Below are positions 1,484 through 6,227 of a stretch of DNA of 15,689 nucleotides, one piece after another; position 1 is the first letter of the stretch, and every line of letters starts with the position of its first letter. This DNA comes from Chthoniobacteraceae bacterium (GTDB taxonomy: Bacteria; Verrucomicrobiota; Verrucomicrobiia; Chthoniobacterales; Chthoniobacteraceae). Both the position numbers and the translations under genes were made by a program. The notes below the pieces were generated by a model that was not told the DNA's origin, did not search any database, and worked only from the letters and a program-made list of their open reading frames with translations. The stretch spans positions 1 through 15,689 of the forward strand of contig JANNXQ010000167.1 of NCBI GenBank assembly GCA_031409655.1, read 5' to 3'.

Positions 1484-2743
1484 TCAGGCCAGGTTGCCAT
1501 CGGCATCGAAGGACATGTCGGACGGGTCGCTGAGCGCGCTGAGTTCGGGGCGGGTGCGCACTTCCATCCAGAGCGGCTCGGAGATTTCCATTTCCGAAAG
1601 CGAGAGGGTGTCGGCGATGCGGACGATTCTCGCGGCGCGCGGATCGGGCAGCGGGAGCGAGGCGAGCATGCGCTCGAGGGCTTCGCGGTCGGTGTCGAAG
1701 GCGATGGGGATTTTTGCGCCCTGCGGGGTGAGGGCGGTCAGGCAGTTGATGCTCGTGACGCGCGGGTCCATCTCGCGGACGAGCCGCGTGGTGGTGGCGT
1801 CGGCCAGGCCGATGCCGATGGCATTCCCGTGCGTCTCCGGGGTGAGGCCGCGGATGAAGATGCGGCGGATGAAAGGCGCAGGCCGATCGCCGCGCATGGG
1901 CAGGCTGTCGTAGCCGTGGATGCTGCGGTTGATGACGTTCGGATCGAGGCCGGCACCGCTGATGTTTTTGCCGATGCGATCGACGATGAGCAGGTCGATC
2001 TCGTCAAAGGGCAGGAGCGGCATGAGCGCGCGGGCTTCGACGAGCAGGGCGTCCTCGGCGGTCTCCATTTCCTCGCGCGGGATGGCGACGAGCCGGGCGG
2101 TGTCGTGGAATTGATTTTCGAGGATGGCGAGGCCGCCGAGCACGGGCGCATTTTGCAGGAGCACGGCGGCCATGCCGCGGATCACGCGCTCGTAGCCGAG
2201 TTGCGTCGCGGCGAGGTGCATCGCGGTCGCGCCCGCGCGCTTACCGAGGCCGATGACGCACATCTTCAAAAGGCCGCTGCCGAGCGTGCCGGCGAAATCG
2301 GTGTGCGGCTTGATGCGATTGACGAGCACGATGCCATCGGCGGCGAGCGCTTCAGTGCTGCAAAAGACGGGCACGCCATCCGCCGAACGTCCAACTTCCC
2401 GGACCTCGAGCGAGTCGCGGATGGGCACGCCCATCGCCTCCTCGGTGATGCCGTAGCTGGCGAGCACTGCGCGCTGGCCTTCGGGTGTCGCGCCGCCGTG
2501 GCTGCCCATCGCGGGGATGAGGAACGGCTGCGCGCCCGCCGCGCGGAGTTGCGCGAGCACCGCGCCGACGATCTCGGGGAGATGGCTGATCCCACGACTG
2601 CCCACTCCGACCGCGATGCGCGCGCCGGAAGGCACGCGCGCGCGCAATTTTCTAAACGCAGTGTCAAGCGTGGCGCGGATGTCGAGCGGCGGCGTCTCGG
2701 GGAAGTGCTGCCGGATGCGGAGGATGCGCGGGAGGGAACTCAT
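1484..2743 (-). CDS. Lactate racemase (LarA)/DUF2088-DUF362-like domain protein
   Basis: 419-aa ORF with motifs IAVGVGSRGI, PAMGSHGGATPEGQ, NRIKPHTDF, SGLLKMCVIGLGK, GKNISGAGLDPNVI and GNAIGIGLAD, typical of the LarA-N-like family. Substrate unknown. Confidence 0.8.
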   Translation of the reverse strand: MSSLPRILRIRQHFPETPPLDIRATLDTAFRKLRARVPSGARIAVGVGSRGISHLPEIVGAVLAQLRAAGAQPFLIPAMGSHGGATPEGQRAVLASYGITEEAMGVPIRDSLEVREVGRSADGVPVFCSTEALAADGIVLVNRIKPHTDFAGTLGSGLLKMCVIGLGKRAGATAMHLAATQLGYERVIRGMAAVLLQNAPVLGGLAILENQFHDTARLVAIPREEMETAEDALLVEARALMPLLPFDEIDLLIVDRIGKNISGAGLDPNVINRSIHGYDSLPMRGDRPAPFIRRIFIRGLTPETHGNAIGIGLADATTTRLVREMDPRVTSINCLTALTPQGAKIPIAFDTDREALERMLASLPLPDPRAARIVRIADTLSLSEMEISEPLWMEVRTRPELSALSDPSDMSFDADGNLA

Positions 2744-2773
2744 GGCGCGAGCATGACGGATCGAAGGCCGGAA

Positions 2774-4693
2774 TCACTCCCTCATTCCATCCCCCGCCCC
2801 GAGCGCCACGACTTTGCGCAGCGCGCCGACGGTGAAGACGAGGGGATACATCCGCTCGTAGTACCAGAGCTTCGCAAAGTAGAAGCCGATCGGCGCCGGA
2901 TCGCGCCACGCGCCGGACTCGACGCGCGCCACGAGCCACGCCACGCCGCGCTCGACGGCGCGCAACTGCGCAGTGCCCGCGAGCGCTTCGAGCACGAGCG
3001 CCGTCTCCTCGACGGACGATGGGCCGCCCGCTCCGCCGCTCCAGCCGCCGTCGGCATTCTGCATCGCCGCGAGCCGCTCTTCCGCGCGGCTGCGCATCGC
3101 TTCCGCGACGGCGTAACCGCGCCCGATGAGTTCGCGCAGCGCGGTGAGCACGAGCGCGGTGCCGTAGGTGAAATTTTCGTCGTCGGGCGAATGCTCGTTT
3201 CCGAACCAGAGCGGGAGCCAGGTGCCATCCGCGCGCTGACATTTCTCCAGGAAGGCAAGGCCGCGAGTGAGGGCGCGCCCCACGCGCGGCTGCAAATCTT
3301 TCGGGAGATGAACGTGCCACGCGCTCCACGCCCGGAGCGTGTGCGCGGTGAGATCGGGGCTGCTGCGATCGAAAGGGAGCGCGCCCCAACCGCGGCAGAA
3401 AGTCGGGATGCCACCGTCGCGATTTTGCAGGCCGAGCAGCCACTGCACTCCGGCGATCCCGGCGGCGAGGGTCTCGGGATTCACCGCGCCGAGATCGAGC
3501 AACGCGAGCAATGCGCCCGGCGTGTCATCGGCATCAGGGACACCGCCGGGGAGATCCGTCCACGCCCAGCCGCCCGGCGCGGCGTGAGTGTACGGATGCT
3601 CCTCGCGATACTGCTGGCCGAGCAGCCACTCGCGGAGCGTGAGCCGCTGCTCCGGCGTGAGGGCATGGCGCGGGAGGGCCTTGATCGCGAGCGTCGTCAC
3701 CCAGGTCGCGAGATTGGTGTCGATGGCCCAGCTCCCATCCGGCTGCACCGAGGCGCGCAAAAACTCCGCGCCCTTTCGCGCCACGGGATGCTCCGCGAGG
3801 CCCATCGAAGCGAGGCCCATGGTGACGAAGCTCGTGAGCGGGGTGGCTTCGAGGAAGCCGCCATTCGGGGGCTGGATGGATTCGAGCACGCGCAAGGTCC
3901 GCGCTTTGGTCATGACGCGAACCACTCGCGCGATCGGATTCCGCGATGGCCGGTGATGGTGAATCGTCTGTCCGATCGCGATGAGCGCCGGCAGCGCGTA
4001 GCTGACCACCGGCAATTGCAGGGCGCCGAAAAGCTGGTGCGGCAATGCGGCCAACTCGAAAGGCAGCGGCATCACGTGCTCCCAGCCGGTGCGTCCACTC
4101 AGCGCCAGCGTCATGAGGATGGGGACGGAAAAGGTGCGGTCCTGCCCGTAACGCGCGGCGATCGCGGCGGGGAGGTTCCGGGGAGCGCGCCCGTCCCGGG
4201 CGCTGGTCGCGGCGTCCCGCCGCGACGGACTTTCCGGAACGCTCATCGTCCGAATCGCGTCCCCTGAACTCGTACGCGCATCGAAAGTCCGTGCCGGCGG
4301 GACGCCGGCACCAGCGCCCGGGACGGGCGCGCTCCCCGCACTCGCCACCGCGAGCCAGCTCTCCGCACGCGCAACCACCACGCGATATTCCGCATCCGCA
4401 TGTGCCGCACCGAAGGCCGCCCAGCATAGCGCGGTGGTGCTGATGTTTGATCGGCTCTTCACCGTGTCGCCCCAGCCACCATCGGCATTCGCATTCTCCG
4501 CGAGCCAGCGCAGTCCGCCGGCGATCAAGTGCTGATCCCCTTGTCGCGCCACCTGGGCCAGCGCCACCACCGCGGTCGCCGTCGAGAGCGCACTGGCCGA
4601 GAGCTGGCCGCTCCAGTGCCCGTGCGGATTCAGCTCCGCGAACAGCACCTCCGTGGCGACGCCCAGCGCGCGCTCGATCCGCGCACCGCTCAC
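2774..4693 (-). CDS. shc: Squalene-hopene cyclase-like class II terpene cyclase (639 aa) with an in-frame palindromic insert
   Basis: C-terminal part of ORF 2774..5899. Start placed at GTG 4693, overlapping the upstream TGA (GTGA). Catalytic DXDD motif in GGWAWTDLPGGVPDADDTPG; QW-type repeats (NANADGGWG, QNRDGG, QRADGTW, QNADGGW); PIGFYFAKLWYYE near the C-terminus. The actual cyclization product cannot be read from sequence. Confidence 0.85.
   Translation of the reverse strand: MSGARIERALGVATEVLFAELNPHGHWSGQLSASALSTATAVVALAQVARQGDQHLIAGGLRWLAENANADGGWGDTVKSRSNISTTALCWAAFGAAHADAEYRVVVARAESWLAVASAGSAPVPGAGAGVPPARTFDARTSSGDAIRTMSVPESPSRRDAATSARDGRAPRNLPAAIAARYGQDRTFSVPILMTLALSGRTGWEHVMPLPFELAALPHQLFGALQLPVVSYALPALIAIGQTIHHHRPSRNPIARVVRVMTKARTLRVLESIQPPNGGFLEATPLTSFVTMGLASMGLAEHPVARKGAEFLRASVQPDGSWAIDTNLATWVTTLAIKALPRHALTPEQRLTLREWLLGQQYREEHPYTHAAPGGWAWTDLPGGVPDADDTPGALLALLDLGAVNPETLAAGIAGVQWLLGLQNRDGGIPTFCRGWGALPFDRSSPDLTAHTLRAWSAWHVHLPKDLQPRVGRALTRGLAFLEKCQRADGTWLPLWFGNEHSPDDENFTYGTALVLTALRELIGRGYAVAEAMRSRAEERLAAMQNADGGWSGGAGGPSSVEETALVLEALAGTAQLRAVERGVAWLVARVESGAWRDPAPIGFYFAKLWYYERMYPLVFTVGALRKVVALGAGDGMRE
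4179..4338. repeat. REP doublet/REPIN-like palindromic element inside the cyclase CDS
   Basis: Arms 4179-4234 and 4283-4338 are 56-bp inverted repeats (52/56 matches) around a 48-bp spacer. Each arm starts GGGAG and has two small hairpins with TCC loops. Confidence 0.9.
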
Positions 4694-5103
4694 GCCAGCT
4701 TGTCCTGCTCGCGCGTGCGCTTCGGCAGGATCGCGCAAGCCTCTTTGCACCCAAAGATGCGGCTGAAATAAAGCCGATGCCGGCTCACGAACGCATAGAC
4801 GACCTCCGCAATCTGAATGACCCCCGGAATCCACAGGAAAAGCGCCACCGGCACGAGCAGCGGGAGCCGCATCCCGACAAAGCGAATCGCCCGCGCTCCG
4901 CGATGCACCTTCCGCTCCGGCGTCACGCAATGGATCGCCTCGAGCAAATCCTCCCGCGTGAGCTGCGGCGCGATCTCTTTTGCATGGGGATCGGAGAGGG
5001 GCACGAGCGCGAGTGCGTGCAGCCAATCCAGCCAGCTCAGCACCTTCATCTGAAAAGTGCAGAGCGGACATTCGTCGTCGTAGAGGACGGTGTGTTTCGT
5101 CAC
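4690..5103 (-). CDS. DCC1-like thiol-disulfide oxidoreductase (DUF393)
   Basis: 137 aa; N-terminal VLYDDECPLCT (DxxCxxC) and C-terminal Y.FVSRHR motifs typical of the family. Confidence 0.88.
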   Translation of the reverse strand: MTKHTVLYDDECPLCTFQMKVLSWLDWLHALALVPLSDPHAKEIAPQLTREDLLEAIHCVTPERKVHRGARAIRFVGMRLPLLVPVALFLWIPGVIQIAEVVYAFVSRHRLYFSRIFGCKEACAILPKRTREQDKLA

Positions 5104-5112
5104 AGGCGGAAG

Positions 5113-6015
5113 CTAGATGCTGAGATGTCCGAGCGCCAGCAGGCCGTAGAAGGTGTACTCGGCGTCGAGGTGATCGTCCGCCCAGTGGCCGTGGAAGCCG
5201 CCTTCGGCGCTCCAGAGCGTGTCGATGAAATCCAGGCAGCGCTCGCGGATGGGCGCGGGGACTTCGCGTTCGAGGCAGGCGAGGGCGTGCAGGGTGGTGG
5301 CGGTGGAGAGGAGGTCGGGCAGCGGGGCGCTGGGCATCGCGCGGAAGCCGCCGTCGGGGTGCGACTGCGCGAGGAGCCAGTCGCCGACGATGGCATTCAC
5401 AGGGACGCCGAGTTGGTGGAGCAGGGTGACGGCGGCGGCGGTGGCATTGGTCGAGCCGATCCGGAGGGCGCGGGCGTTGGCCCAGGCACCGTCGGGGGTT
5501 TCGAGAAACTTCAGGCATTGCACCATGCGCAGCGGCTCGGGCATGGCGCGCTGCAAATCCTGATAGGCACCGAGGGCGACGAAGCAGCCGTAGGCATTCC
5601 CGTGCTCTGCGCCGAGGTCGGCATCGTAGCCGCCGTCGCGAGAGCGGTGCGCTTCGATCCGCGCCAGGAGTGCGTCGGCAAGACCGGCGGGCATTTTCTC
5701 GAGGCCCACCGCGGCCCAGCACCGCGCCAGCGCGCCGAGATGCACGAAGTCGAGACCCGCGCCGTCGCCGAAGCCGCGCAGCCACCGGTGGGAAGTTGAG
5801 AGTTGAGCGTTGAGAGTTGAGAGATCGGCGGACAGCGCCTGCAGACCCGCGAGGGCGAAGATGGTGTAGTACAGGTCGGCCTTGCCTTCGCGGTCGCACC
5901 CTGCACCGGCGGTCGTGAATTGCTGCGCGAAAAACTCCCGGACCAGACCGGCCGATTCCCCGAGCTGCGTTGGCGCGACGCGCGCCACCTGGAGCATCTG
6001 GAGACGCAGGCTCAC
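5113..6015 (-). CDS. Prenyltransferase/squalene oxidase repeat protein (single alpha/alpha barrel, GGTase-beta-like), 300 aa
   Basis: C-terminal part of ORF 5113..6501. Likely start GTG 6015 (MSLRLQMLQVARVAP). Repeats DLYYTIFAL, SRDGGY, TPDGAW, HPDGGF, SAEGGF and DAEYTFYGLLAL. The upstream extension to 6501 crosses the REP element and the divergent gene, so it is not credible. Confidence 0.82.
   Translation of the reverse strand: MSLRLQMLQVARVAPTQLGESAGLVREFFAQQFTTAGAGCDREGKADLYYTIFALAGLQALSADLSTLNAQLSTSHRWLRGFGDGAGLDFVHLGALARCWAAVGLEKMPAGLADALLARIEAHRSRDGGYDADLGAEHGNAYGCFVALGAYQDLQRAMPEPLRMVQCLKFLETPDGAWANARALRIGSTNATAAAVTLLHQLGVPVNAIVGDWLLAQSHPDGGFRAMPSAPLPDLLSTATTLHALACLEREVPAPIRERCLDFIDTLWSAEGGFHGHWADDHLDAEYTFYGLLALGHLSI
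5794..5823. repeat. Heptamer tandem repeat (AGTTGAG)x4.3, i.e. (CTCTCAA)n on the coding strand, in frame in CDS 5113..6015
   Basis: AGTTGAG AGTTGAG CGTTGAG AGTTGAG AG = 30 bp. Encodes LSTLNAQLST (residues 65-74) with A/T-ending codons (TCA, ACT, CAA) atypical for this gene. Confidence 0.9.
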
Positions 6016-6102: not shown

Positions 6103-6227
6103 CTGGGAGCGCCGCCGTCCCGTGCGGCATCCTGACTCACGCGCAGCGCCACTTCCCGATGTGGATCGAGCGGAATGGCGCGGCGCGCGGCGGGGCACGA
6201 TGCCGCACGGGACGGCGGCGCTCCCAG
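6103..6227. repeat. Intergenic REP doublet/REPIN-like element
   Basis: Perfect 29-bp inverted repeat CTGGGAGCGCCGCCGTCCCGTGCGGCATC (6103-6131 / 6199-6227) with a 67-bp spacer. GGAG tag followed by a bulged hairpin with a TCC loop, the same architecture as the 4179-4338 element. Confidence 0.9.

Follow-up and report, generated by a model that had tools for sequence, protein, structure and literature searches.

A REPIN in frame within a squalene-hopene-cyclase-like gene of a Chthoniobacteraceae bacterium, at a loop that is likely a reusable repeat slot

Introduction

How does a long palindromic repeat come to lie in frame inside an enzyme gene, and what becomes of it there? The question is raised by a 15,689-nucleotide contig of a Chthoniobacteraceae bacterium (JANNXQ010000167.1, assembly GCA_031409655.1; the contig is hereafter the window and its assembly the source genome, G000), in which a squalene-hopene-cyclase (SHC)-like gene contains a large inverted repeat within its open frame. 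The classic in-frame palindromic inserts are the Rickettsia palindromic elements (RPEs), as described in the accessible part of PMC10969869. An earlier note on this DNA read the repeat as an RPE-like case and implied that such inserts are rare outside Rickettsia. In the accessible portion of the survey of Di Nocera et al. 2013 (PMC3733652), however, intragenic GTAG repeats are most numerous in the verrucomicrobium Opitutus terrae, where they fill 70 table rows and include dimers of up to about 50 aa. Given these published in-frame REPs, the main novelty claim of the note is weaker than stated, and finding one REPIN in frame in a gene of a verrucomicrobium adds no new kind. Less expected is the turnover of the loop that holds it: at least seven repeat types among close orthologs, with arms that track the REP variant of each genome, in a gene under purifying selection.

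Results

A REPIN inside an SHC-like cyclase gene

The repeat lies in frame in the cyclase gene, at the residues that the earlier note had quoted (Table 1). It is the longest inverted repeat in the window, with arms of 56 nt (4179-4234 and 4283-4338) that are 93% complementary and 48 nt apart; an arm profile built genome-wide extends it slightly on both sides. The predicted fold has an energy of -99.5 kcal/mol (z -12.1), which none of 200 shuffles equalled. A search of the window against Rfam gave no match. Arm 2 shares 52 of its 58 letters with an arm of a RAYT transposase cassette nested in recG of a same-genus relative, G001. The repeat is thus a REPIN: a pair of REP arms, each 58 nt long and tagged with GGAG, stand in inverted orientation around a spacer and together make a hairpin, and each arm has two hairpins of its own rather than the single one that had been assumed.

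Table 1. Positions of the cyclase gene and of the parts of its REPIN in the window.
Feature	Position	Strand	Description
SHC-like type II terpene cyclase gene (predicted)	2774..4693	-	639 aa, open frame; GTG start inferred from homologs
DADD (DXDD) acid motif	3524..3535	-	residues 387-390
REPIN	4177..4340		164 nt by genome-wide arm profile; encodes residues 119-172 on the - strand
Arm 1	4177..4234	+	GGAG tag 4182-4185; hairpin 1 at 4187-4203, hairpin 2 at 4206-4226
Spacer	4235..4282		48 nt; by inspection unlike the spacers of other genomic copies
Arm 2	4283..4340	-	GGAG tag at 4335-4332

As a check for misassembly, independent contigs from two runs (X1 and X2, which belong to one study that is possibly the window's own source) were compared with the locus. 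They match the gene-into-arm, spacer-plus-arm and arm-into-gene segments with zero differences within the element, and none of the contigs listed spans the whole of it. Misassembly is also made less likely by other proteins that have inserts of this family in the same loop. A scan of metagenomes for the junctions gave only 3 loci. At window position 4427 the letter is T here and G in all four runs compared, a synonymous difference in the cyclase.

The host protein scores above the cut-offs of both Pfam cyclase domains, SQHop_cyclase_N and SQHop_cyclase_C (PF13249 and PF13243). Its acid motif aligns with PDVDDT of the Alicyclobacillus acidocaldarius SHC and is intact, D387, D389 and D390 being invariant among 30 homologs. 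The predicted model superposes on the A. acidocaldarius structure (2sqc) along its whole length (Z 34.9, rmsd 3.0, 534 residues), and the two proteins have in common the DXDD motif and QW-type repeats; the model has the two alpha-barrel domains which, with DXDD, are typical of the type II terpene cyclase superfamily. Unlike the A. acidocaldarius enzyme, to which it is 24% identical, the protein falls far under the NCBIfam SHC cut-off (TIGR01507, 87.5 against 431.1), as do two insert-free homologs (92.6 and 112), and the source genome encodes a separate, canonical SHC on contig C127 (679.8 bits). Because the score stays this low whether the insert is present or absent, and the genome has a canonical SHC besides, we regard the cyclase as a non-canonical SHC-like paralog, and the name of membrane-lipid enzyme given to it earlier was overstated. 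Sequence and model together predict a divergent type II terpene cyclase.

Modelling gives residues 122-168 a pLDDT below 50, a value partly expected where few alignment rows carry the residues, and places them between helices 104-119 and 174-182. The prediction for the insert is thus a disordered loop within the part of the enzyme that is N-terminal and non-catalytic, in keeping with the added loop that had been proposed. Downstream of the loop, dN/dS is 0.12-0.18 against two same-genus orthologs; it is 0.12-0.20 over all pairs with an insert-bearing gene and 0.13-0.25 between empty ones. With values so similar in both classes, the cyclase gene is not decaying. The closest homologs carry the names Chthoniobacter or Chthoniobacteraceae, and 115 genomes of the family have the gene.

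The gene stands in a minus-strand run (1484-6015) with a prenyltransferase-barrel protein, a DCC1-like oxidoreductase and a nickel pincer isomerase (group 22, 483.6 against a threshold of 400), an uncharacterised terpenoid-like cluster that is found in many genomes of the family. A short run of heptamers of the gagagtt type at 5799-5823 is in frame in the 5113-6015 gene of this cluster, where it encodes STLNAQLSTSH; repeats of this kind occupy the cyclase loop in some relatives. Between a prenyltransferase-like gene and a radical SAM gene the window has a second REPIN, at 6103-6227, with 32-nt arms (97% complementary) of another GGAG family, which has about 110 loci in the genome and just 2 matches in coding frames, both short and weak.

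The loop across orthologs

Compared with an empty ortholog of the same genus, the insert adds a net 51 codons (anchor distance 110 vs 59). In the best 120 of 7779 homologs, a sample biased towards the query's own insert, the loop is short in 39, matches one or both arm peptides in 21, is long with other content in 46 and intermediate in 13, and one sequence has no anchor. Within the genus, G001 has a short loop, G002 keeps one arm, and G003 starts another variant at the end of its contig.

At the DNA level we sampled 80 named loci and 43 chosen ones, the latter being all matches of one genus, loci with split matches and some others. The loop holds at least seven types of tagged palindrome, at least six of them distinct from the source REPIN family, as well as paired heptamer repeats. 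The occupant in P0085 encodes the peptide GTGVPPV. On a 73-row tree built without the loop, which excludes 10 near-duplicates and the rows outside one clade of a 206-row tree save for 6 outgroup rows, the loop states are interleaved, and neighbours on short branches differ in state: P0005 has the source REPIN family, P0039 is empty and P0025 has another family. The AU test rejects a single clade for all 25 carriers (p-AU 0.0008), and likewise for the 14 with a spacer in common (p-AU 1e-25); these tests were run after inspection of the tree, which is unrooted and makes gain indistinguishable from loss, and proteins from metagenomes may be chimeras joined at the repeat. A similar exchange is seen in a CusA-type pump, 92% identical between the source genome and G001, whose loop contains another repeat family in G001. 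Since orthologs are empty, eroded or filled by other families and the gene is conserved, the cyclase loop is likely a reusable landing site for repeats, rewritten while the enzyme gene stays conserved. The single insertion event pictured in the earlier note gives way to a loop that was probably filled, emptied and refilled by several families.

The spacer and the arms behave differently. Between orthologs the arms differ at about 15% of sites and the spacer at about 41%. In orthologs with a common spacer, the spacer differences are spread over the first, second and third codon positions, from which the encoded peptide looks neutral; the one measurable pair gives a spacer pN/pS of 1.09, vs 0.12-0.25 in the gene. 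Changes in the arms hit both sides of each stem and both arms together, and the loop arms agree with the commonest variant in their own genome. When compared with the arm of the resident RAYT, the loop arm is identical in 4 of 11 genomes (G090, G012, G118 and G099), agrees at family level alone in three (G002, G003 and G089) and shows no match in four (the source genome, G102, G103 and G132). Sliding identity shows no recombination peak around the loop, and horizontal spread of the shared-spacer allele, which we considered, is unsupported in the absence of such a peak.

The REPIN family in the source genome

The arm profile finds 77 arms at 43 loci of the source genome, arranged as 34 inverted pairs and 9 single arms, which bears out the prediction of a GGAG-tagged REPIN with many genomic copies. 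All share one plan, in which two hairpins come after a tag that reads GGAG or GTAG. The tag is of the GTAG type, its four letters being G in 72, G in 65 or T in 10, A in 75 and G in 71 of the 77 arms. Each of 16 stem pairs is retained in 67 to 77 of the arms, in several different base-pair combinations, which amounts to covariation. Total lengths cluster at 161-168 and 206-210 nt and spacer lengths at about 45-52 and 90-91 nt, and the spacer sequence varies from copy to copy. Like REPINs elsewhere, the family is made up of many dispersed and chiefly extragenic copies, most of them doublets with preferred spacing.

By inspection, no common direct repeat flanks the 34 pairs, as a target-site duplication left by a MITE of a DDE-type IS would, and the copy in the pump gene shows a net loss of target. 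The arm edge expected for a cut between C and T, namely C or CT, is present in only 41 of the 77 arms; the trinucleotides listed at the edge are ACT (13), GCT (9), CTT (4), CCT (3) and TCT (1), with C before T in 28.

Under a strict rule only 4 of the 43 loci are internal to coding frames, whereas 136 of 300 random windows satisfy the rule; copies in coding sequence are therefore both few and depleted. Their in-frame hosts are the SHC-like cyclase, an AcrB/CusA-type pump and two DUF7133/cytochrome c proteins, and among the four the second arm is read in three different frames. The RPE-like reading therefore holds as to a palindrome in frame in several unrelated genes; it fails as to a conserved peptide, given these three frames and a spacer pN/pS of about 1. 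Beyond the four there are one ambiguous locus and about four in possible N-terminal extensions.

Several copies have a peculiar setting. Those at L200, L201, L202 and L203 follow a possible start codon, precede a stretch that resembles a signal peptide, and may be translated N-terminal inserts. At L199 (G000:C47:13743-13905) the copy is degenerate and coincides with what looks like a change of frame in a large protein of Gln/Gly repeats, and a 330-nt copy (G000:C256:34133-34462) has a spacer that seemingly holds a nested repeat of another family.

RAYT transposases nested in other genes

Of the RAYT with the same REP that had been predicted, one part stood: it is found in relatives. In the source assembly, which is 94.9% complete, no RAYT with the source REPIN arms was found; none of its 13 Y1 matches has such arms at a distance of 4 kb or less, nothing is inserted in its recG, and the closest RAYT that it does have (52%) lies in alaS and is flanked by other arms.

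In G001, a RAYT (NF047646, 80.4 against a cut-off of 80) is nested in frame in recG and flanked by source-type arms (51-52 of 58 letters), which are read there in the same G-S-A-P-V frame as in the cyclase insert. A-type arms also flank RAYTs in G009, G012 and others. With the G001 RAYT as query, 57 of the 151 genomes of the family give matches at E<=1e-25, almost always within an open frame of more than 500 aa, and the hosts seen are RecG, AlaRS, ThrRS and an MmeI-type enzyme. The Y..NP motif is present in 29 of 30 RAYT sequences, and HVH was read directly in some. In one genus the source or sister arm type occupies the loop in 5 of 14 genomes with the nested RAYT clan and in none of 10 without it, a small comparison of related, hand-picked genomes that is to be taken as a hint only.

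In G012 the orthologous cyclase gene runs into an arm with an antisense RAYT directly behind it (C96 end, L071:2248-2697; L004). This RAYT has one TAA stop and is 77.5% identical to the recG RAYT of the same genome, and another G012 contig (C64) begins in the same arm with a REPIN. The join may be a real allele or an assembly chimera.

Other nested RAYTs were noticed in passing. L037 of the source genome (G000:C138:15761-16249) has double-hairpin GGAG arms and is in frame in an alanyl-tRNA synthetase, and at L034 (G000:C102:35377-35604), L070, L078 and L081 a RAYT lies within a 1150-1440-aa sugar kinase/UDPGP-like protein. In relatives (L079:17-4048, L080, L082 and L076), RAYT domains are in frame in CarB-like and ClpB-like proteins or precede a RecF-like protein, host names that were assigned by reading the sequences.

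Discussion

The comparisons below refer to the accessible parts of the papers cited. As in O. terrae, a member of the same phylum, tagged palindromes and their dimers lie in conserved genes and are translated, there as 7-50 aa (PMC3733652), and the GTAG-19 peptide of O. terrae, GTGVPPV, is that of the P0085 occupant of the cyclase loop. Unlike those repeats, each arm of the source REPIN is a GGAG-tagged double hairpin of 58 nt, and the arm peptide is absent from the 70 O. terrae rows; the O. terrae inserts are mostly at differing sites, and the accessible text of that paper describes neither a loop refilled by several families nor a gene-nested RAYT. With the REPIN-RAYT system of Pseudomonas (PMC3116915, Bertels & Rainey 2011) the element has in common an inverted REP doublet which with its spacer forms a hairpin, and a cognate RAYT flanked by REPs. 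Both have preferred spacings, 71 and 110 bp in Pseudomonas and totals of about 162-166 and 206-207 bp here; and in Pseudomonas the sites are extragenic and the RAYT genes free-standing (PMC3116915; 10.1101/2024.10.14.618302), whereas in the present system repeats fill a loop of a protein-coding gene and RAYTs lie in frame inside recG, alaS or thrS. Like an RPE, the element is a palindromic repeat of about 150 bp that is in frame in unrelated genes and adds about 50 aa (PMC10969869, PMC3733652). RPEs have a conserved peptide, and the CGTC type is without a dedicated transposase (PMC10969869, PMC3733652); here, unlike in RPEs, the peptide encoded by the spacer looks neutral, the arms carry a GGAG/GTAG tag and relatives have a RAYT that matches. 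Our literature searches brought up no description of several REP families refilling one coding loop, nor of RAYTs that sit inside recG or other genes; long fusion-like RAYT proteins were discarded in PMC6006769, as its accessible part states, and the words 'fused', 'fusion' and 'Verrucomicrobi' are absent from 10.1101/119735.

We think it probable that the REPIN in the predicted disordered loop of the cyclase is a neutral translated passenger which was inserted by a RAYT and is periodically rewritten, and that the RAYT clan responsible sits in frame in recG and other housekeeping genes. RAYTs other than that of the source family cut single-stranded REP DNA at tag-guided sites (PMC8266576, accessible part). 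A RAYT of the present clan would similarly recognise the tagged hairpins on single-stranded DNA and paste REPINs, a few flanking codons often being lost in the process. Most genic insertions would be purged, and those that keep the frame in a loop of about 10 codons would survive. Once occupied, the loop would be cut again, lose sequence between its arms, or be overwritten by whichever REP variant is active in that lineage at the time, and the 54-residue peptide would be produced without a function of its own. Extragenic REPINs at conserved sites 'may be overwritten' as RAYTs change, according to the accessible part of the REPORTH preprint (10.1101/2024.10.14.618302), and the rewriting of the cyclase loop looks like a coding counterpart of this process.

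Several observations speak against this explanation: the source assembly yielded no RAYT with these arms, the loop arm equals that of a resident RAYT in only 4 of 11 genomes, the edge expected for a cut between C and T is seen in only 41 of 77 arms, and one spacer allele occurs in two clades, among empty loops, without a recombination peak. The same allele, with its third-codon-like divergence, is what we would expect if one old insertion had been inherited and eroded, its arms homogenised by ordinary gene conversion without a RAYT and the other families having arrived once each. Many loops have scars that suit such a history (P0017, P0038, P0045, P0053, P0068 and P0072), and the SAPREL of the G001 loop could be a deletion between two arm ends. 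We nevertheless consider inheritance of this kind unlikely, for the spacers and left junctions of P0001, P0002, P0006, P0023 and P0052 look mutually unrelated, a conserved short loop of the WLEKARGAxAL type is nested among the filled alleles, and different families are found in proteins whose fork is just 0.04-0.07 changes per column away.

It is more doubtful still that the hairpin is retained for a function in mRNA or DNA, such as stability, pausing or operon regulation, with the loop position selected for it. Unrelated families do recur at this loop, and arms that diverge so much less than the spacer would suit a selected hairpin, but rewriting would equally give arm conservation; moreover, 39 of the best 120 homologs have no insert, many occupants are half-elements unable to form the long hairpin, and the occupants vary in sequence and fold. 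We hold it to be highly improbable that the gene is disabled by its insert, or that the insert arose when the assembly was joined through a repeat. The cyclase is a paralog and may be dispensable, this arm is where the G012 and G003 assemblies break off, and no single listed contig crosses the element; against this, contigs span the junctions in two runs, 21 of the best 120 homologs carry same-family inserts at the same loop, and dN/dS in pairs with an insert-bearing gene is no higher than between empty ones.

A wider reading of the preferred explanation, that of a RAYT-inserted and periodically rewritten passenger, is that the REPIN-RAYT system has moved into the proteome, with RAYTs translated inside housekeeping genes and tolerant loops cycling between empty, REPIN and whole-cassette states and being overwritten when the resident RAYT changes. 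We offer it tentatively, as a possibility that falls somewhat short of probable. If it were true, the antisense RAYT pseudogene behind the arm in the G012 cyclase would be a snapshot of the cycle.

Inserts of this kind mislead protein alignments and break assemblies. If the passenger explanation is correct, REPIN overwriting, so far suggested at extragenic sites, would become traceable at a site that has a built-in clock in its host codons as well as polarity, and the cyclase loop would provide a defined substrate for asking whether the gene-nested RAYTs of this family are active.
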